Assembly: GCA_038901755.1 (NCBI GenBank) | Contig: JBCKPH010000001.1 | Coordinates: 2,410 to 66,409 of the forward strand | DNA length: 64,000 bases | From: Burkholderiaceae bacterium | GTDB lineage: Bacteria; Pseudomonadota; Gammaproteobacteria; Burkholderiales; Burkholderiaceae_C | Reading direction: 5' to 3' | Shown: in pieces, positions 28,819 to 53,009 of the stretch | How positions within the stretch are numbered: position 1 is the stretch's first letter | Layout of the letters: every line of letters starts with the position of its first letter | Notes under the pieces: model-generated | The model's database searches: none | What the model was told of the DNA's origin: nothing | What the model saw: only the letters and a program-made list of their open reading frames with translations | Program-made: the position numbers and the translations under genes

Positions 28819-29826
28819 TCATCGCTTGATCGACTGAACGCGTGCCGCCCGCTTTTCGAGTTCTTCGCCTTCCCTGACCCGGTTCGTTGCACGGTAGAGC
28901 GCCGCCAGATCGATCAGACTTTCGGCCACGTCAGGATGGTCCGGGCCGAAGGCAACCTCCCTGATCGCCAGCGCGCGCTTGTAGAGCGGCTCGGCCTGCG
29001 CATACTGCTTTTGGGCGCGGTGAATCTCCGCCAGATTGCTCAGGCAGGTGGCCACATTCGGATCGTCCGGAATCTGTGCTTTCTCGAAGATGGCCAGCGC
29101 GCGCTTGTAGTGCGACTCGGCCAGCGCGAACTGGCTCTGGCCGCGGTACACCTCGGCCAGGTTGTTCAAGCTGGTGGCCACGAAGCGATGCTCCGGGCCG
29201 AAGGTTTTCTCCCTGATCGCCAGCCTGCGCTTGTACAGTGGCTCGGCCCGCGCGTATTGGCCCTGGTCGCGGTAGATTGCAGCCAGGTTGCCCAGGCTGA
29301 CGACGACCTCGGGATGCTCGGCGCCGCGGGTTCGCTCCCTGGTCGCCAAGGCGCGCACGAACAGCGGCTCGGCCTGCAGGTACAGCTTCTGGTTGCCATA
29401 GAACTCCGCGAGATCGACCAGGCTCGCGACGGCATCCGGATGGTCCGGCCCCTGGACTTTCTCCCGGATCGCAAGCGCGCGCTTGTACAGCGGCTCGGCC
29501 TGCCCGTACTGCTTCTGAAAGGTGTAGAGAGACGCGAGGTTGCTCAGGCTGGTCGCGACATCGGGATGCTCAGTGCCGACATTTTTCTCGGCAAGCTCCA
29601 GCATCTTCCTTGCCACCTCCACCGCGTTGGCGTAGTTGCCCATGCGATATTGCCGGGCCGACTCCTGACCGAGCCTTTCCCATTCGGCGCCCGCTCCGGT
29701 TTGCGCCAACGCCGAGAGTGGCAGCAGGCAGGCCAGCAGCAGGACCGCCAAACAATTTCTGATGTAATCGATCAGAGGGTGACTCCGTGTTTTGCGAGAA
29801 ACAGAGCGCCGCGGCGGCAAACGCAA
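28819..29826 (-). CDS. Tetratricopeptide-repeat protein (TPR_12 / kinesin-light-chain-like), secreted
   Basis: About seven 42-aa units of the form NLA.LY..QGQYA.AEPLYKRALAIREK..GP.HPDVA. N-terminal hydrophobic signal. Confidence 0.8.
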   Translation of the reverse strand: MRLPPRRSVSRKTRSHPLIDYIRNCLAVLLLACLLPLSALAQTGAGAEWERLGQESARQYRMGNYANAVEVARKMLELAEKNVGTEHPDVATSLSNLASLYTFQKQYGQAEPLYKRALAIREKVQGPDHPDAVASLVDLAEFYGNQKLYLQAEPLFVRALATRERTRGAEHPEVVVSLGNLAAIYRDQGQYARAEPLYKRRLAIREKTFGPEHRFVATSLNNLAEVYRGQSQFALAESHYKRALAIFEKAQIPDDPNVATCLSNLAEIHRAQKQYAQAEPLYKRALAIREVAFGPDHPDVAESLIDLAALYRATNRVREGEELEKRAARVQSIKR

Positions 29827-45467: not shown

Positions 45468-46505
45468 ATGACGTACAGATCGGTATTCCGCCCCGGCCTG
45501 TTCGAGCGCAAGGTCGTGCTGGTGACGGGGGGCGGTTCGGGCATTGGCCGCTGCACGGCGCATGAGCTGGCCGCGCTCGGCGCCCATGTCGTGCTGGTTG
45601 GGCGCAAGCTGGACAAGCTGCAAGCCGTGGCCGGCGAAATCGCTGCCGACGCAGCCGGCCAAGGCAGCGGAGTGAGTTTTCATGTTTGCGACATCCGGCA
45701 GGAAGACATGGTGCGTGACATGGTGGCAGCAGTCGTCGCCAGCCATGGCCAGATCGACGCATTGGTCAACAATGCCGGCGGCCAGTACATGGCGCCGCTG
45801 GAGCAGATCTCGGCCAAGGGCTGGGACGCGGTGCTGCACACCAATCTGACCGGCGGCTTCCTGATGGCGCGCGAGTGCTATCTGCAGTCCATGCAGCAGC
45901 AGGGCGGCGCCATCGTCAACATCGTTGCCGATATCTGGGGCTCGATGCCCGGCATGGGCCACAGTGGTGCGGCGCGCGCCGGCATGGTCAGCTTCACCGA
46001 GACGGCGGCGCTGGAGTGGGCCAAAAGCGGAGTCCGGGTGAACGCCGTGGCGCCGGGCTACATCGCCTCCAGCGGCATGGACCATTACCCGAGCGAGGCC
46101 GGCCCCCGGTTGCGCCAGATGAGCCAGACCGTGCCGGCAGGCCGCTTTGGCAACGAGGCCGAGACTGCGGCGGCGATTGTGTTCCTGCTTAGCCCGGCGG
46201 CGTCCTTCATCAGCGGCAGCGTGTTGCGGGTCGACGGCGCGCGGCCGCAGGTGCGCATGGGCTGGGGCCAGGTGGCCGCGCCCGCGGACGTGCAGCTGCG
46301 CGATGCGGTCAAGCCCTACGACGGGTTTCACCGGGCAGTGACGCCCAAAGTATTGAGGCAAGACCCTCACCCCTACCCTCTCCCGCAAGCGGGAGAGGGG
46401 GTTGATGTAACTTCTCCCTCTCCCTCCGGAGGGGAGCAGGAATCTTCTCCCTCCTCGTCCGGGACAGGGCGGGCACGTTCTCCCTCTCCCGGCGGGAGAG
46501 GGTAG
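45468..46505 (+). CDS. SDR-family oxidoreductase (AtuB / trans-2-enoyl-CoA reductase-like) with repeat-encoded C-terminal tail
   Basis: VVLVTGGGSGIGRC, SGAARAG. The last 47 aa and the TAG stop lie inside the repeat array 46364..46514. Confidence 0.85.
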   Translation: MTYRSVFRPGLFERKVVLVTGGGSGIGRCTAHELAALGAHVVLVGRKLDKLQAVAGEIAADAAGQGSGVSFHVCDIRQEDMVRDMVAAVVASHGQIDALVNNAGGQYMAPLEQISAKGWDAVLHTNLTGGFLMARECYLQSMQQQGGAIVNIVADIWGSMPGMGHSGAARAGMVSFTETAALEWAKSGVRVNAVAPGYIASSGMDHYPSEAGPRLRQMSQTVPAGRFGNEAETAAAIVFLLSPAASFISGSVLRVDGARPQVRMGWGQVAAPADVQLRDAVKPYDGFHRAVTPKVLRQDPHPYPLPQAGEGVDVTSPSPSGGEQESSPSSSGTGRARSPSPGGRG

Positions 46506-46514
46506 GGGTGAGGG
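46364..46514 (+). repeat. Hairpin-repeat array A (4 units, 151 bp) with inverted termini CCCTCACCCCTACCCTCTCCCGC / GCGGGAGAGGGTAGGGGTGAGGG
   Basis: Seen directly. CT-rich arms (C/G)TTCTCCCT recur at 46411, 46444 and 46477 (33-bp spacing). Confidence 0.85.
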
Positions 46515-46522
46515 CGACGACG

Positions 46523-48190
46523 ATGGCAATTTATCAATCATCGTGGAACCCGCAAAGTGGCGCGGCTCTGCAGCGCAGCCAGGCCATGAGCGAGCGTATC
46601 GCTCAGTTGCGAGCGCTGGAGCAGCGCGCGGCCCTTGCCTCGGCCAAATCGAAACCGGTGTTCGAGAAACGCGGCCAACTGCTGCCGCGCGAGCGAATCG
46701 CGCTGCTGCTGGACCCGGGCGCGCCCTGGCTGCCGCTTTGTTCGCTGGCCGGCTTCATGCAGGACGGCCACGAGGTGGCGAAATCGGTGCCCGGTGGCGG
46801 CATTGTGGCCGGCATCGGTTTCATCAGCGGCGTGCGCTGCATGGTGGTGGCGAGCGATTCGGGCATCGACGCCGGCGCGATGCAGGCCAAGGGGCTGGAC
46901 AAGATGCTGCGGGTGCAGGAGATCGCGCTGCAGAACAAGCTGCCGTTCGTGTTTCTGGTGGAGAGCGCCGGCGCCAACCTGATGCTGTACCGGGTCGAAG
47001 GCTTTGTCCAAGGCGGCGCCCTGTTTCGCAACCTGGCGCGGCTGTCGGCGGCCGGCCTTCCGGTGATCACCGTGCAGCATGGCTCGGGCACCGCCGGCGG
47101 CGCCTACATGCCGGGCCTGTCCGATGTGGTGATCATGGTGCGAGGCCGGTCCCGCGCCTTCCTGGCCGGGCCGCCGCTGCTGATGGCCGCCACCGGCGAG
47201 GTGGCGACCGAAGAGGAACTCGGTGGCGCCGAGATGCACAGCACCATCTCCGGGCTGGGCGAGTACCTGGCCGAGGACGACCGGCAGGCGCTGGGCATCG
47301 CTCGCGAAGTGGTGGCTCGCAGCGCCCTCACCGCAACCGTCACCCGGGGGGAGAGCAGGCAAGACGGACACCCTCTCCCGCTTGCGGGAGAGGGCAGGGG
47401 TGAGGGTCCCCAACCACCCTGCCACCCGGCCGATGGGCTGCTTGGCATCATGCCCGACAACCTGCGCGAGCCGCTCGACATGCGCGAGGTGATGGCGCGC
47501 ATCGTTGATGGCTCCGAGCTGCTGGAGTTCAAGGCGCTGTACGGCGCGCAGACGCTCTGCGTGCAGGCCGCGCTCGGTGGCTACTCAGTCGGCATCATCA
47601 GCAACAACGGGCCGATCGACGTCGCCGGAGCGAACAAGGCGACGCACTTCATCCAGTTGATGTGCCAGCAGGGTTCGCCGCTGATCTACCTGCAAAACAC
47701 CACCGGCTACATGGTCGGCAAGGAGAGCGAGCAGGGCGGCATGATCAAGCATGGCTCGAAGATGATCCAGGCGGTGACCAACGCCAGCGTGCCGCAGTTC
47801 ACCGTGATGTGCGGCGCCTCCTACGGCGCGGGCAACTACGGCATGTGTGGCCGTGCCTACGCGCCGCGTTTTCTGTTCAGCTGGCCGAGCGCGCGCACCG
47901 CGGTGATGGGTGGCGAACAGGCGGCGCGGACCATGCAGATCGTCACCGAGGCGGCGCTGCTGCGCAAGGGGCTGACTGTCAACCCGGCCGAATCGAAAAC
48001 GCAGTACGACAAGATCGTGGCGCGCTTCGAGTCCCAGGCCGACGCTTTCTACACCTCGGGCCTGCTGCTGGACGACGGCGTGATCGACCCGCGTGATACC
48101 CGCGATGTGCTGATCCAGTGCCTGCAGATGGCCGACGAAGCGGCGCGTCGCACGCTGCGGCCGATGCAGTTCGGGGTGGCCCGAATGTAA
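46523..48190 (+). CDS. Acyl-CoA carboxylase carboxyltransferase (beta) subunit, AtuC/LiuB/MccB-like
   Basis: Carboxyl_trans family (GQLLPRERI...GGAYMPGLSD...GASYGAGNYGMCGRAY). Start set to the ATG at 46523. Confidence 0.9.
   Translation: MAIYQSSWNPQSGAALQRSQAMSERIAQLRALEQRAALASAKSKPVFEKRGQLLPRERIALLLDPGAPWLPLCSLAGFMQDGHEVAKSVPGGGIVAGIGFISGVRCMVVASDSGIDAGAMQAKGLDKMLRVQEIALQNKLPFVFLVESAGANLMLYRVEGFVQGGALFRNLARLSAAGLPVITVQHGSGTAGGAYMPGLSDVVIMVRGRSRAFLAGPPLLMAATGEVATEEELGGAEMHSTISGLGEYLAEDDRQALGIAREVVARSALTATVTRGESRQDGHPLPLAGEGRGEGPQPPCHPADGLLGIMPDNLREPLDMREVMARIVDGSELLEFKALYGAQTLCVQAALGGYSVGIISNNGPIDVAGANKATHFIQLMCQQGSPLIYLQNTTGYMVGKESEQGGMIKHGSKMIQAVTNASVPQFTVMCGASYGAGNYGMCGRAYAPRFLFSWPSARTAVMGGEQAARTMQIVTEAALLRKGLTVNPAESKTQYDKIVARFESQADAFYTSGLLLDDGVIDPRDTRDVLIQCLQMADEAARRTLRPMQFGVARM
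47325..47406 (+). repeat. Hairpin-repeat array B (1 degenerate + 1 intact unit), ending CCCTCTCCCGCTTGCGGGAGAGGGCAGGGGTGAGGG
   Basis: Same terminal motif as arrays A and C. Left boundary is approximate. Confidence 0.75.
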
Positions 48191-48203
48191 TGAAAGCGCC
48201 AGG

Positions 48204-48380
48204 AAGTTTCGGTCGCTTCGCTCCCGCGATACTTTTGAGCGGTTTAAGTAGCGAAAAAGCTTGGGGGATTTGCCGGTGCGCCTGCGCCTGCGAAGCTGGG
48301 CAGCGTCGACAAATCAATGGTCGACCTACGCTATGCACGCATCGAGGCATTACGCTACGGTCGACCCCGGCGCTTTTTCG
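48204..48380 (+). repeat. Intergenic repeat, copy 1 (about 80-bp element split by a 98-bp insert at 48267..48364)
   Basis: 48204-48266 plus 48365-48380 align with 57401-57482 at roughly 75% identity (AAGTTTCG.TCGCT...GATACTTT...AAAAAGCTTGG...CCCGGCGCTTTTT). Confidence 0.6.
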
Positions 48381-48397
48381 AAAAATGGAGAACGCAA

Positions 48398-49591
48398 TTG
48401 AACTACACCCACGAACATCTTGAAATCCAGAAGACGCTGAAGCGCTACATCGACGAGCACATCAATCCCCACGTGGACGAATGGGAAGAGGCCGAGATGT
48501 TTCCGGCGCATGTAGTGTTCAAGGGGCTGGGCCAGCTTGGTCTGCTGGGCCTGACCAAACCCGAGGAGTATGGCGGCGCCGGGCTCGACTACTCGTACTC
48601 GGTGGCCATGGCCGAGGCGCTGGGCCATATCGACTGCGGTGGCGTGCCGATGGCGATTGGTGTGCAAACCGACATGGCCACACCTGCGCTGGCGCGCTTT
48701 GGCAGCGACGAGTTAAGGCGCGAGTTCCTGGCGCCGGCGATTGCCGGTGACATGGTGGGTTGCATTGGCGTCAGCGAGCCCGGCGCCGGCAGCGACGTGG
48801 CTTCCATCAAGAGTCATGCGCGCAAGGACGGTGACGACTACCTGATCAGCGGCCAGAAGATGTGGATCACGAACAGCCTGCAGGCGGACTGGATGTGCAT
48901 GCTGGTCAACACCGGCGACGGCCCGAGCGGAGCGGGCAACAATCCGCACAAGAACAAGAGCCTGGTGATGGTGCCGATGCGGGATGGCCCGAACGGCAAG
49001 CTCACCAAGGGCATCGAGGTGGCGCGCAAGATTCGCAAGATCGGCATGAATTCCAGCGACACCGGCCTGATCTACTTCGACGAGGTGCGGGTGCCGCAAC
49101 GCAATCGCATCGGCGCCGAGGGCTCGGGCTTCATCTACCAGATGATGCAGTTTCAGGAGGAGCGACTTTGGGCCGCTGCCAAGGCCCTGCTTTCGCTGAA
49201 CAAGCTGATCGAAGTCACGGTCGAATGGGCGCAGCAGCGCAAGCTGTTTGGCGCCACGCTGGCCGATCAACAGTGGGTGCAGTTCAAGCTGGCCGAGGTC
49301 AAGACCGAGGTCGAATGCCTGCGCGCGCTCACCTACCGGGCCTGCGACCTCTATGTGTCGGGCCAGGACGTGACCGAACTGGCTTCCATGGCCAAGCTCA
49401 AGGCCGGCCGGCTTGGGCGCGAGGTGGCCGACACCTGCCTGCAGTTCTGGGGCGGCATGGGCTTCACCTGGGAGAACAAGGTGTCGCGCGCCTACCGCGA
49501 CGGCCGACTCGGCTCCATCGGCGGCGGCGCCGACGAGGTGATGCTGGGCATCATCGCGAGGTACATGGGCATGGCAAAGAAACGCCCATGA
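48398..49591 (+). CDS. Acyl-CoA dehydrogenase (AtuD/LiuA-like)
   Basis: ACAD family. Start set to a TTG at 48398, 7 nt after a GGAG, giving MNYTHEHLEIQKTL. Confidence 0.85.
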   Translation: MNYTHEHLEIQKTLKRYIDEHINPHVDEWEEAEMFPAHVVFKGLGQLGLLGLTKPEEYGGAGLDYSYSVAMAEALGHIDCGGVPMAIGVQTDMATPALARFGSDELRREFLAPAIAGDMVGCIGVSEPGAGSDVASIKSHARKDGDDYLISGQKMWITNSLQADWMCMLVNTGDGPSGAGNNPHKNKSLVMVPMRDGPNGKLTKGIEVARKIRKIGMNSSDTGLIYFDEVRVPQRNRIGAEGSGFIYQMMQFQEERLWAAAKALLSLNKLIEVTVEWAQQRKLFGATLADQQWVQFKLAEVKTEVECLRALTYRACDLYVSGQDVTELASMAKLKAGRLGREVADTCLQFWGGMGFTWENKVSRAYRDGRLGSIGGGADEVMLGIIARYMGMAKKRP

Positions 49592-51753
49592 AGCGCTTGC
49601 TGATCGCCAACCGCGGCGAAATCGCCCGCAGGGTGATCCGCAGCGCGCACCGAATGGGCATCGAAACCGTTGCGGTGTATTCCGACGCCGACTCCAGCGC
49701 GCTGCATGTGGCCGAGGCGACAACGGCCTTTGCGCTGGGCGGCAACGCCTCGGCCGACAGTTACCTGCGCATCGACCGGCTGCTCGAAGCCGCGCGCGCC
49801 ACCGGTGCCGACGCGGTGCACCCGGGATATGGCTTCCTGAGTGAAAACGCCGGCTTCGCCCAGTCCGTGCTGGATGCCGGTCTGACCTGGGTCGGCCCGC
49901 CGCCCGCCGCCATTCGGGCCCTGGGCAACAAGGCCAGCGCCAAGCAGTTGGCACAGCGGCTGGGCGTAGCCTGCCTGCCTGGTTACCAGGGCGAGGACCA
50001 GACGGACGCGCGTTTTGCCGCCGAGGCGCGAAGAATAGGCTATCCGGTGATGGTCAAGGCCAGCGCCGGCGGCGGTGGTCGTGGTATGCGGCTGGTCGGC
50101 AGCGCCGAGCACTTGTCTGCCGCCTTGCAGGGCGCGCGCTCCGAGGCGTCAAGCAGCTTCGGCAGCGCTGAACTGCTGATCGAACGCGCCTTGCTGGACC
50201 CGCGCCATGTCGAGGTGCAGGTGTTCGCCGATGCGCATGGCCACTGCATCCATCTGGGTGAGCGCGACTGTTCGGTGCAGCGGCGGCATCAGAAGATCAT
50301 CGAGGAGTCGCCCAGCCCGGCGGTCGATTCAGCGCTGCGCGAGGCCATGGGCCAATGCGCCGTGAAGCTGGCGCTCGCGGCAGGCTATGTGGGTGCGGGA
50401 ACGGTGGAGTTTCTGCTCGAGGCGAGCCCTCACCCCAACCCTCTCCCGGAGGGTGAGGGGGTCCGAAGCAACCTCCCTTTTCCGGAGGGTGAGGGGGTCC
50501 GAAGCAATCTTCCTCTCCCGGATAGAGAGGGGGTCCGAAGCAACCTCCCTTTTCCGGAGGGTGAGGGAGTCCGAAACAGTCTTCCTCTCCCGGATAGAGA
50601 GGGCGTCAAAAACAATCTCCCTCTCCCGCTTGCGGGAGAGGGTAGGGGTGAGGGCATCTGTGAGTTCTTCCTGATGGAAATGAACACCCGGCTGCAGGTG
50701 GAGCACCCGGTGACGGAATTGCTGACCGGCCTGGACCTGGTGGAGTGGCAGTTGCGCATCGCGCGCGGCGAGCCGCTGCCGCTGACGCAGGAGCAGGTGC
50801 GGTGGCAGGGCCATGCGATCGAGGTGCGGCTCTGCGCCGAGGACGAAAACTTCGCGCCGCACTCGGGCCTGGTCCGGCAGTTCCAGGCGCCCGAGGGGGT
50901 GCGCTTCGACCACGCCCTGCACCAGGACCTGGCGGTGCCGCCCTATTACGACTCGATGCTGGGCAAGATCATCAGCCACGGGCTGGACCGCGCCCAGGCC
51001 ATCGCGCGGCTGCGCGCCGCGCTGGCCCAGACCCTTGTGCTGGGCCTGCCGACGAATCGAGGATTTCTGGACGCCTGTCTGGCGCATCCGCAGTTTGTTG
51101 CTGGCGAAGCGCGGATTCCGTTCCTGGCGAACCAGGCCGGCGCCCTGCGTGAGCAACTTCAACAGCGGGAGCGGCGCTTGTTGTTGCCTTGCGTGGTGGC
51201 GCTGCTCTACATGGATGCGCCGGCGACGGGCACCGGCCTGCCATGCCCATTTGCCAGGCCCGCGAAAGTGCGTTGGCGCGACCAGTTGTTGGCCCTATCG
51301 GTGCTGGAGCTCGGGCCAGGCCTGCTGCGCGTCGAGTCAGAGGGGCGGCGGCATGATGTGCTGTGGACGCGCCAGGATGCGGGGTTGCTGCGGGTTACGC
51401 TGGACGGGTTGAGGCACCAGGTTGCCGCCGTGCGGCTGGACGTTCAGCGCTGGCATCTGCAATGCGATGGCGTTGAACTCTGGTTGGAAGACGCGTCCTT
51501 CGAGCCGGCGATACAGGCGGGCGGCTCTCGTGCGACAGACGAACTGCGGGCGCCGTTCAACGGCAAGTTGATCGCGCTACCTGCCAGCGCCGGCCTCTCG
51601 CTGCGCCGCGGCGACCCGCTTGCCGTGATCGAATCGATGAAACTCGAGCATGCGCTATGCGCGCCGCGCGACCTGACTGTCAAGACCCTGTCGGTGCAAG
51701 TCGGCCAGCAGGTCGCGACGGCGCAGTTGCTGATGACCTTCGAACCGGCATGA
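49588..51753 (+). CDS. Acyl-CoA carboxylase biotin carboxylase + BCCP (alpha) subunit, AtuF/LiuD/MccA-like, carrying a 76-codon repeat insertion
   Basis: MKRLLIANRGEIA, MVKASAGGGGRGMR, EMNTRLQVEHPVTE, and the biotinyl-Lys motif IESMKLEH. ATGA overlaps at both ends. Confidence 0.9.
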   Translation: MKRLLIANRGEIARRVIRSAHRMGIETVAVYSDADSSALHVAEATTAFALGGNASADSYLRIDRLLEAARATGADAVHPGYGFLSENAGFAQSVLDAGLTWVGPPPAAIRALGNKASAKQLAQRLGVACLPGYQGEDQTDARFAAEARRIGYPVMVKASAGGGGRGMRLVGSAEHLSAALQGARSEASSSFGSAELLIERALLDPRHVEVQVFADAHGHCIHLGERDCSVQRRHQKIIEESPSPAVDSALREAMGQCAVKLALAAGYVGAGTVEFLLEASPHPNPLPEGEGVRSNLPFPEGEGVRSNLPLPDREGVRSNLPFPEGEGVRNSLPLPDREGVKNNLPLPLAGEGRGEGICEFFLMEMNTRLQVEHPVTELLTGLDLVEWQLRIARGEPLPLTQEQVRWQGHAIEVRLCAEDENFAPHSGLVRQFQAPEGVRFDHALHQDLAVPPYYDSMLGKIISHGLDRAQAIARLRAALAQTLVLGLPTNRGFLDACLAHPQFVAGEARIPFLANQAGALREQLQQRERRLLLPCVVALLYMDAPATGTGLPCPFARPAKVRWRDQLLALSVLELGPGLLRVESEGRRHDVLWTRQDAGLLRVTLDGLRHQVAAVRLDVQRWHLQCDGVELWLEDASFEPAIQAGGSRATDELRAPFNGKLIALPASAGLSLRRGDPLAVIESMKLEHALCAPRDLTVKTLSVQVGQQVATAQLLMTFEPA
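50427..50654 (+). repeat. Hairpin-repeat array C (6 units, exact 36-bp period, 228 bp) with inverted termini
   Basis: The linker (TCCGAAGCAA in the first three copies, TCCGAAACAG and TCAAAAACAA in the last two) starts at 50462, 50498, 50534, 50570 and 50606. Termini are CCCTCACCCCAACCCTCTCCCG / CGGGAGAGGGTAGGGGTGAGGG. Confidence 0.9.
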
Positions 51754-53009
51754 GCGATTCGACGATGAACCCATCAGGCGATGCTGCGGCAGCCTTGCGC
51801 GAGGACATCGTCGCCCTGACCGACACGGTGCGGCGCTTTGCCTTGAGCGAGGTCGCGCCCCACGTGGAAGCCTGGGAGGAAGCTGGCGAGATACCGCGCG
51901 CGCTGTACCGCAGGGCCGCCGAACTGGGCCTGCTTGGCCTGGGTTACCCGGAGTCGCTGGGCGGCACGCCGGCACCGTTTGCGCTGCGCCATGCGATGTC
52001 GGTGACGCTGAGCCGCTACGGCGGCAGCGGCGGTCTGATGGCCAGTCTGTTTTCGCTCAACATCGGCCTGCCGCCGCTGCTGCGTCATGGCAGCGCGGCG
52101 CTGCAGCAGGAAATCGTGCCGCCGGTGCTGCGTGGCGAAAAAATTGCCGCGCTGGCTATCACCGAGCCGGGCGGCGGATCCGATGTAGCCAGCATCCGCA
52201 CTACCGCCAGGCGCGAAGGCGATGACTATCTGATCAACGGCGAAAAGACGTTCATCACCTCGGGCATGAGGGCCGACTGGATCACCATGGCGGTGCGCAC
52301 CGGCGAGCCGGGCAGCAAGGGCGAAGAAGGAAGCGCGCACAAGGACGAGAGCAACAACCCGCACAAGGGTGAGAGCAGCAACGCGCACCGAGGCGCGCGA
52401 GGCATTTCGATGATCGTTGTTCCCGGCGCTGCGCTGGGCCTGAGCCGCAGCGCGCTGCGCAAGATGGGTTGGTGGTGTTCCGACACGGCGCACCTGCGCA
52501 TGGACAACATGCGGGTGCCGGCGCGTTACCTGCTTGGGGAAGAGGGCGGCGGCTTCAAGATCATCATGAGCAATTTCAACGGCGAGCGGCTCGGCATGTC
52601 GGCCATGGCGCTGGGTTTTTCCCAGGCCTGCTACGACGAGGCGCTGGACTGGGCACGCCAGCGCCAGACCTTCGGCGTGGCGTTGGTCCAGCACCAGGTG
52701 ATCCGCCACAAGCTGGTCGACATGCAAATGCGCATTGCATCGACCCAGGCCTGGCTGGACGCGGTGACGGCGCGCCTGGACGCGGGCGACAGCTCGCCCG
52801 ACTGGGTGGCCCAGGTCTGCATGCTGAAGAACCACGCGACGCAGGCCATGCAGTTCTGCGCCGACCAGGCGGTGCAGATCCTGGGCGGCATGGGTTTCAT
52901 GCGCGGCACCCGCAGCGAGCGCATCTACCGCGAGGTCAAGGTCATGATGATTGGCGGCGGCGCCGAGGAAATCATGAAGGAACTGGCCGCGCGCCAACTC
53001 GGAATCTAG
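51750..53009 (+). CDS. Acyl-CoA dehydrogenase
   Basis: ACAD family (ITEPGGGSD...). ATGA overlap with the alpha subunit gene. Contains an in-frame 24-nt tandem repeat. Confidence 0.85.
   Translation: MSDSTMNPSGDAAAALREDIVALTDTVRRFALSEVAPHVEAWEEAGEIPRALYRRAAELGLLGLGYPESLGGTPAPFALRHAMSVTLSRYGGSGGLMASLFSLNIGLPPLLRHGSAALQQEIVPPVLRGEKIAALAITEPGGGSDVASIRTTARREGDDYLINGEKTFITSGMRADWITMAVRTGEPGSKGEEGSAHKDESNNPHKGESSNAHRGARGISMIVVPGAALGLSRSALRKMGWWCSDTAHLRMDNMRVPARYLLGEEGGGFKIIMSNFNGERLGMSAMALGFSQACYDEALDWARQRQTFGVALVQHQVIRHKLVDMQMRIASTQAWLDAVTARLDAGDSSPDWVAQVCMLKNHATQAMQFCADQAVQILGGMGFMRGTRSERIYREVKVMMIGGGAEEIMKELAARQLGI
52335..52388 (+). repeat. In-frame tandem repeat, 24-nt unit, about 2.3 copies
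   Basis: GCGCACAAGGACGAGAGCAACAAC / CCGCACAAGGGTGAGAGCAGCAAC match at 20 of 24 positions, followed by GCGCAC... The repeat encodes AHKDESNN-PHKGESSN-AH. Confidence 0.6.

Follow-up and report, generated by a model that had tools for sequence, protein, structure and literature searches.

How does the gene for a metabolic enzyme come to contain 228 bp of hairpin-forming DNA, in frame and beside a catalytic motif? The question is raised by a 64,000-nt stretch of a Burkholderiaceae bacterium (assembly GCA_038901755.1, contig JBCKPH010000001.1, positions 2,410 to 66,409), here called the window, in which the gene for the alpha subunit of an acyl-CoA carboxylase carries a composite repeat at 50426-50655. 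An initial annotation, made from the sequence alone, had described this repeat as an undescribed array, similar to repetitive extragenic palindromic (REP) sequences and ending ~5 residues before the EMNTR motif of the enzyme; the array in fact ends 7 residues before the Glu of that motif. We consider it likely that a pair of triplex motifs (TMs) of the published, cosmopolitan BoxC/PIT/TMECO family occupies the turn of an active-site beta-hairpin, that a 36-bp unit has been amplified within the pair, and that the whole is selfish or neutral DNA, read as a tolerated protein loop of 76 residues.

Identity of the element

A literature search that started from the sequence of the element itself led to Holder et al. 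(2015, NAR 43:10126; PMC4666352), where TMECO is defined as 5'-CCCTCNCCC N3-6 GGGNGAGGG N3 GGGNGAGGG, in which a C-rich 9-mer is followed, after a loop, by two G-rich 9-mers with 3 nt of loop between them. As cited in that paper, the motif was earlier known as BoxC (1990s, Bachellier et al.) and as PIT, for potential intrastrand triplex (Hoyne and Maher, with Hoyne et al. 2000 and Hoyne & Maher 2002 given as the sources). Five exact matches to the pattern are found in the window, where 0.00 would be expected by chance, and two of them form the ends of the array (Table 1). Judged by its sequence, the element is an inverted pair of BoxC/PIT/TMECO motifs and not a REP, which also removes it from the undescribed repeats. 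By sequence, the three 9-mers of the TM have the mirror/inverted symmetry that an intrastrand triplex would require, and folding into a hairpin is supported. The right motif of the array contains four G-tracts and may be capable of forming a G-quadruplex.

The same paper reports 3610 copies in 262 proteobacterial genomes. Escherichia coli MG1655 has 23, "always located intergenically", with inverted pairs at five sites. Single strands of the motif form a stable triplex in vitro and no footprint was seen in vivo; the E. coli copies show neither promoter nor terminator activity, nor any tie to gene function; and their flanks are hypervariable between strains, a mobility function being "never" seen nearby (PMC4666352). 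A preprint (bioRxiv 10.1101/032615) also gives the E. coli copies as always intergenic, adds that the G-rich strand is G-quadruplex-capable as well, and reports no such motif inside open reading frames (ORFs). The copies in the window resemble this description in their exact pattern, in their dispersal (three loci, each an inverted pair), in local instability between close strains, where the surroundings vary from 0 to 4 or 5 units, and in the lack of an adjacent transposase. They differ in that all three loci, as read from the sequence, are translated in frame, two of them inside enzyme domains, and in that the host is a Polaromonas-like betaproteobacterium. Since the intergenic location has been reported for the E. 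coli copies and does not form part of the sequence definition, the element is still placed in the family. We know of no description of a 36-bp tandem amplification between two TMs.

The periodicity and the limits of the array are largely as annotated. Tandem Repeats Finder gives a period of 36 bp at 50439-50628 (5.3 copies, 79% matches) and a better one of 72 bp at 50440-50622 (2.5 copies, 90% matches), the latter because two hairpin variants alternate. Exact copies of the linker block GGGGGTCCGAAGCAA stand at 50457, 50493 and 50529, putting TCCGAAGCAA at the predicted positions 50462, 50498 and 50534, and a degenerate copy follows 36 bp after the last exact one. The inverted termini that had been proposed are arms of 23 nt at 50426-50448 (GCCCTCACCCCAACCCTCTCCCG) and 50633-50655 (CGGGAGAGGGTAGGGGTGAGGGC), which are 96% complementary; a 22-nt terminus has 5 matches within the window, against 0.00 expected from shuffles. 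Both the ORF and its Pfam domains support a 228-bp element in frame in the alpha subunit. That the frame in use avoids the TGA and TAG triplets of the repeat, to which the initial annotation had drawn attention, is true but unremarkable, since three of the six frames are fully open. By inspection, no direct repeat is present beside any of the three copies in the operon, with no empty site of the same lineage available for comparison.

A scan of 46000-51000 against Rfam gave nothing at or above the gathering score of any family; the sole match at E <= 1 was a sub-threshold one to mir-4660 at 46363-46515 (21.6 bits against a gathering score of 87, E 0.76). With no Rfam match at gathering score and an exact fit to TMECO, membership in the sequence families of the Rickettsia palindromic elements (RPEs) was rejected, and the likeness that had been noted is one of behaviour, for which it is apt. 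RPEs, which Ogata et al. reportedly described in 2000 and 2002, are said to lie in frame in functional genes and to appear as surface-exposed extra peptides. Both are palindromic DNA within functional genes, forming an extra segment that the protein tolerates. They have no sequence relation: RPEs measure 100-150 bp, are known only from Rickettsia and are not known to be tandemly amplified, whereas the TM core has ~36 nt and is found across phyla.

The carboxylase loop in protein, sister genomes and orthologues

The true start of the host ORF is at ~49588 (MKRLLIANRGE...), and the product contains the domains Biotin_carb_N, CPSase_L_D2, Biotin_carb_C and Biotin_lipoyl (Pfam), with CPSase_L_D2 divided into two stretches by the insert. 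It is the alpha subunit of a geranyl/methylcrotonyl-CoA-type carboxylase. Its top relative among solved structures is the methylcrotonyl-CoA carboxylase alpha subunit of P. aeruginosa (3U9S_A, E 1e-152), and many homologues, the named ones mostly from Polaromonas and other Comamonadaceae, bear the JGI label "geranyl-CoA carboxylase alpha subunit". The alignment with 3U9S is interrupted between residues 285 and 289, so that a tight turn of three residues stands at the insert site. As had been expected of orthologues, the segment from GAGTVEF(L) to EMNTR is only 9-10 residues long (e.g. LDENGDFFLM) in 78 of the 119 close homologues that could be scored, as against 87 residues here.

AlphaFold2, run with a 63-sequence alignment, returns a confident carboxylase fold (mean pLDDT 82.6), in which strands 269-277 and 360-366 are confident and intact on either side of the insert, while residues 288-355 have a pLDDT <50 and no secondary structure. 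The insert is predicted to be a disordered loop at the turn of the beta-hairpin that links two active-site strands, in line with the surface loop that had been suggested for it. Residues E274, E364, N366 and R368, all on the catalytic strands, stand in invariant alignment columns, and dN/dS of the gene is 0.14-0.20 against three sister genomes and 0.14-0.24 for the genes outside the insert, as for a gene under purifying selection. Invariant catalytic residues together with a low dN/dS argue that the gene is functional and the insert a tolerated disordered loop; we infer from this that the loop is translated and the enzyme active.

Three assemblies contain the same operon (sister genomes L002, L003 and L004; L numbers are our labels for sequences from other genomes). 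In L003 and L004 the identical site is occupied by nothing but a 50-bp perfect palindrome, GCCCTCACCCCTACCCTCTCCCGC-TT-GCGGGAGAGGGTAGGGGTGAGGGC, while L002 has both arms with 4 x 36 bp and the window both arms with 5 x 36 bp. Synonymous divergence (dS) among the four genes is only 0.03-0.07, insert excluded. With 5, 4, 0 and 0 units at such a distance, the array is young and expanded in situ, and its six units are not the product of six independent insertions. By eye, the two final units are counterparts in the window and L002, and each array has a private duplication, of 72 bp in the window and of 36 bp in L002. The internal units are best read as a young tandem amplification of fast turnover, formed in situ inside a pre-existing inverted TM pair. 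Given an origin in situ, there is no need for further copies of the 36-bp unit elsewhere. A metagenome scan with the linker pattern GGGTCCGAAGCAAYCTY gave chance-like matches; among those listed, none belonged to a TM array, and a loose upstream filter left two, which were one unrelated sequence.

The array has the features of a coding variable-number tandem repeat (VNTR), or coding minisatellite: head-to-tail units of 36 bp (12 codons), a length that is a multiple of 3, and a copy number that differs between near-identical strains with the frame kept. It differs from other coding VNTRs in that its units are hairpins from a dispersed family, bounded by terminal inverted repeats, and in that the host is a cytoplasmic metabolic enzyme and not a surface or regulatory protein. 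The same operon has a further in-frame coding VNTR, at 52336-52388 in the acyl-CoA dehydrogenase gene 51765-53009. Its 24-bp unit encodes ~ESNNPHKG and is present, by eye, in ~2 copies in the window, 3 in L002, 1 in L003 and 3 in L004; remoter orthologues lack it and have RTGEAGSKGAGGISM there, and the upstream dehydrogenase (48317-49591) has a one-off related NNPHKNK segment.

In about 15 homologues the turn holds a single 12-residue segment, SPHPNPLPEGEG, and the DNA of four of them is a bona fide 36-nt TM in the same position and codon phase. These genes show the older state, a single TM in that phase, common to many Comamonadaceae orthologues. Third codon positions of the TM are identical at 11 of 11 sites in four distant orthologues, against 41-65% in the flanking codons, and its DNA would be either constrained itself or renewed by repeated insertion or gene conversion. 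On a neighbour-joining tree of 120 homologues the TM-bearing genes are scattered, a patchy distribution for which the tree is too crude to separate a single gain from multiple gains. A GCGAGC flank common to three clades hints at common ancestry or at exchange of alleles. The loop looks like an insertion hotspot, as inserts of more than 14 residues, of different kinds, are present at the same position in 37 of the 119 scorable homologues.

Unrelated GC-rich, strongly folding inserts occupy the same turn in some orthologues, sometimes adjoining a TM. In genes of the Polaromonas type (L127 3883-4023, L128 3835-4023, L129 3897-3918) such an insert in the beta-turn has ~100-190 bp and encodes ...AGAAEPA.PGRRRSAPPGGS...SVGA. 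That of L127 stands between 19-bp direct repeats (GAAGCGACAAGCGTGGGGG), resembling a target-site duplication, and a 26-nt piece of these inserts is also present in the unrelated locus L089.

The course of events that we propose begins with a single 36-nt TM (SPHPNPLPEGEG) at the turn; a second, inverted TM is present in this lineage. Between the two, the hairpin-plus-linker unit has been amplified in tandem, and units would be gained and lost through replication slippage (slipped-strand mispairing) or through unequal recombination at the self-pairing repeats; such amplification and collapse would be the same local instability that is already reported near the TM elements of E. coli. As the unit has 36 bp, each gain or loss would be neutral to the frame, and as the element is polypyrimidine/polypurine, most frames would be without stop codons, so the DNA can be read as a disordered loop rich in Pro, Gly and Glu. 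This loop would jut from a surface turn and spare the catalytic strands, being tolerated and not useful, and selection would merely purge variants that bear stop codons or break the frame.

Further copies and competing explanations

The gene order of the operon (TetR, a small ORF, a short-chain dehydrogenase/reductase (SDR), carboxyltransferase (beta), acyl-CoA dehydrogenase, biotin carboxylase/biotin carboxyl carrier protein (BC/BCCP; alpha), acyl-CoA dehydrogenase, 4HBT thioesterase, DUF2889) is that of an atu/liu-like acyl-CoA carboxylase operon. Besides the array, two more TM copies lie within it (Table 1). In-frame copies are not unique to the carboxylase gene, as both of these are translated and others occur in unrelated proteins of other phyla. 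The left half of the dimer in the carboxyltransferase gene has decayed in the window and is better kept in L002, and the orthologue in L130 is without this segment. The SDR ORF (45468-46505) runs into the third copy: the element provides the final ~47 codons of the ORF (DPHPYPLPQAGEG...SPSPGGRG) as well as the TAG stop, and the L130 orthologue finishes with ...TPKVFA and a stop codon, with no element. The DNA of this copy folds with a z-score of -6.2. Its G-rich right arm (GGGGTGAGGGC; region 46506-46525) ends 8 nt ahead of the start codon of the carboxyltransferase gene (ATG, 46523) and is a possible Shine-Dalgarno sequence for that gene, so one repeat copy may give the SDR its stop and the carboxyltransferase its ribosome-binding site.

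Table 1. Positions of the carboxylase gene, of the triplex motif (TM) elements of the window, and of related features in other genomes (L numbers)
Feature	Position	Strand	Remarks
Biotin-carboxylase/BCCP alpha subunit, acyl-CoA carboxylase	49588..51753	+	721 aa; Pfam domains, 3U9S_A match
Composite element: left TM, four hairpin-plus-linker units, right inverted TM	50426..50655	+	encodes residues ~280-356 (ASPHPNPLPEGEG...LPLPLAGEGRGEG)
Left TM	50427..50459	-	exact TMECO pattern; plus strand CCCTCACCC-CAA-CCCTCTCCC-GGA-GGGTGAGGG; encodes PHPNPLPEGEG
Amplified internal units	50460..50618	+	12-nt linker (GGTCCGAAGCAA and variants) and degenerate CT-arm/GA-arm hairpin
Right TM	50619..50654	+	CCCTCTCCC-GCTTGC-GGGAGAGGG-TAG-GGGTGAGGG; exact TMECO pattern
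Second in-frame copy, in carboxyltransferase (beta) gene 46523-48190	47324..47406	+	degenerate left TM, linker, intact right TM 47371-47406 (exact TMECO pattern, + strand); encodes ...ALTATVTRGESRQDGHPLPLAGEGRGEG
Third copy	46363..46515	+	left TM 46364-46399 (exact, - strand), two degenerate hairpins, right TM 46482-46514 (exact, + strand)
In-frame TM, single or paired, in HsdR, IspG, UDP-galactopyranose mutase, heme A synthase, Mfd	L018 ~1381; L046 ~5995; L061 ~2706; L120 ~6194; L007 3474-3532		several phyla, AT-rich ones included
TM-bracketed DUF559 (PF04480) genes	L005 1307-1800; L054 2407-2840; L073 1290-1730; L011 820-1470; L149 130-690		

Elsewhere in the window, degenerate 126-bp tandem repeats at 28934-29571 (4.6 copies, 69% matches) are probably a repeat-protein coding region, with a TPR-like periodicity of 42 codons.

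The 20-nt core CCCTCACCCCNACCCTCTCCC is present at at least 120 loci of a contig collection with one genome per species, those listed belonging to Alpha-, Beta-, Gamma- and Deltaproteobacteria, Planctomycetota, Chloroflexota, Cyanobacteria, Verrucomicrobiota, Bacteroidota, Actinomycetota and others, and in at least 120 stretches of IMG/VR viral contigs (L132-L251). By our own rough estimate, databases of this size would hold ~1 chance match. Among the matches listed, nearly all consist of the core, a loop of 3-12 nt and then GGGAGAGGG. Inverted TM dimers with linkers of ~10-14 nt occur in other phyla (e.g. L019, L028, L057, L084), which makes the hairpin spacing of ~36 bp a trait of the family. 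Given the matches in viral contigs, phages or prophages could carry TM elements between hosts.

Coding copies are not confined to the window. Of the 129 core-motif matches listed from other genomes, 33 are spanned by an open frame that extends for 60 codons or more to either side, and Pfam places in-frame TMs inside a single domain in the case of HsdR (SWI2_SNF2), IspG (GcpE) and UDP-galactopyranose mutase (GLF), as well as in a loop of heme A synthase, between domains of Mfd, and within PriA. The hosts use different reading frames of the TM (PHPNPLPEGEG, LSPSPLGEGWGEG, LTPTLSRKGRG), which fits the three open frames of the BC element. The E-values from a search of 5.8 billion sequences with the 79-aa insert peptide were uninformative, PHPNPLPEGEG and PLPLGEGRGEG being found in many short ORFs and a few real domains.

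These data bear on what the insert is to the protein. A selected protein feature, such as a flexible Pro/Gly/Glu linker or an interaction module, would account for the maintained frame, for the 12-residue version at one site in many orthologues and for purifying selection on the gene, but it is largely refuted and hardly credible now: the same DNA is found between genes and in other frames of unrelated proteins, it is conserved at the DNA level with synonymous sites included, disorder is predicted for its peptide, close strains fare well with 0 units, and most of the scorable homologues have the short segment only. A genuine domain was rejected on the DNA-level conservation, the several frames elsewhere, the predicted disorder and the 0-unit alleles; the annotation of the array as a DNA element has been borne out. 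A different identity for the DNA would be a REP/BIME or REPIN cluster, moved by a RAYT (Y1) transposase. The linker-separated hairpin units recall BIMEs, the inverted doublet is REPIN-like, and the loop TAG yields GTAG in some copies; however, GTAG is not conserved (loop 2 is TAG, CAG or TTG here, and CCG or TTA in E. coli), the element fits another published family exactly, and its core is common to many phyla, unlike REPs, which are lineage-specific. With no conserved GTAG/CGTC at the foot of the palindrome and an exact TMECO match, this identity was rejected as very improbable. To MITEs (miniature transposable elements with inverted repeats) and REPINs the element is similar in its terminal inverted repeats, small size, strong fold-back, dispersal and possible autonomous partner (DUF559 genes between the same hairpins). 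It differs in that no target-site duplication is visible at the three copies and no transposase is known, and the candidate partner, a Vsr-like endonuclease, suggests another mode of spread if it is involved.

A role selected at the level of nucleic acid, either as a copy-number contingency locus that tunes translation or mRNA stability of the operon or as a hairpin, triplex or G-quadruplex bound by a factor, is unlikely in our estimation. Synonymous sites of the TM are far better conserved than those of the host gene, the core is conserved across phyla, close strains differ in copy number, a TM arm occupies the position expected of the carboxyltransferase Shine-Dalgarno sequence, and the fold of the array's sense RNA is strong (-131.7 kcal/mol, z -4.9) and a little better than the antisense fold (z -3.4). 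Against this stand the E. coli copies, with no promoter or terminator activity, in vivo triplex footprint or link to gene function (PMC4666352), and a patchy presence among orthologues, and recent insertion, or gene conversion between genomic copies, could account for the conservation equally well. The idea of a sense-strand RNA structure with G·T wobble pairs was set aside, the sense fold being only modestly better than the antisense and not decisive. Least probable of all is an artefact of assembly, whether in the array itself or in its number of units. Related assemblies are fragmented drafts (contigs of 13-19 kb), and 36/72-bp tandem repeats totalling 180 bp are hard for short reads; but an independent sister assembly has a homologous, non-identical array of 4 units, the flanks are continuous and in frame, and the window equals NCBI contig JBCKOT010000013.1 (GCA_038902115.1) without difference across 13,457 nt.

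Several points weigh against a neutral TM pair with an array amplified in situ. By pairwise dS, the window is nearest to L003 and L002 nearest to L004, both of which have 0 units; as the 0-unit alleles pair with different array alleles, either two collapses to the bare palindrome or recombination between strains is needed. Unit counts come from short-read draft assemblies, in which the exact copy number may be wrong. That synonymous sites of the TM are so strongly conserved could mean a nucleic-acid function instead of neutrality, the loop's persistence in the mature and active enzyme is argued from conservation of the sequence, and the amplification model names no agent that spreads TM elements.

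DUF559 genes and implications

Such an agent may be indicated by DUF559 genes. We put forward, tentatively and as less probable than not, that a cosmopolitan mobile unit has TM hairpins as its ends or recognition sites and, in its autonomous form, a gene for a DUF559 (Vsr-like, PD-(D/E)XK) endonuclease, and that solitary TMs, inverted pairs and arrays would be its non-autonomous derivatives. In the genome and viral loci selected for a TM, five of six DUF559 genes lie between TM-like hairpins on both sides (from Variovorax, Acinetobacter, Rhodoplanes, Gastranaerophilales and a viral contig; Table 1). The arrangement of a TM, an ORF of ~110 aa and an inverted TM is found in frame in MetRS (Variovorax, L005) and in PriA (Gastranaerophilales, L054), and both of these ORFs are DUF559 (PF04480, E 1e-33 to 1e-45). 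E. coli K-12 (L131 7200-7770) has a DUF559 gene, ycjD, whose stop codon falls within the loop of a degenerate TM hairpin; ~170 nt downstream, beyond a duplicated piece of the ycjD 3' end, comes a full TMECO. With a broad peptide pattern, TM-like peptides were found in the termini of 35 of 120 DUF559 homologues, against 1.6% of control windows, a narrower first pattern having matched 6 of 120. The bracketing TMs are not uniform in orientation (tails outward in L054, inward in L005, L073 and L011). No DUF559 gene was found in 0.77 Mb of unrelated metagenome loci or in the window, and no TM-DUF559 association in the literature searched.

BoxC/PIT/TMECO has been known for ~30 years and described as strictly intergenic. 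The new features are TM elements that are translated, an enzyme loop with a conserved TM, and a coding VNTR that was seeded by a TM beside an active site. A TM can reside in an essential part of an enzyme, 7 residues from the catalytic Glu, without killing the gene, and can be kept at the DNA level across deep divergence. It can seed a fast, frame-preserving tandem expansion, which is a route to new disordered peptide segments and to strain-level polymorphism in protein length, and it can donate stop codons, and possibly ribosome-binding sites, to adjacent genes. Its translated motifs (PHPNPLPEGEG, PLPLAGEGRGEG, LTPTLSRKRER and similar) account for many an unusual insert and spurious "hypothetical protein" in genome annotation. 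For the effect of the array on the carboxylase, the four sister genomes (GCA_038902115.1, GCA_038902075.1, GCA_038901935.1 and GCA_038901875.1), with 0, 4 or 5 units, are a natural allelic series. The DUF559 association provides a testable candidate for the enzyme that mobilises TMs; if true, it would explain their conservation across phyla, their spread into coding regions and their local instability, and would supply the mover that has been sought since the 1990s.

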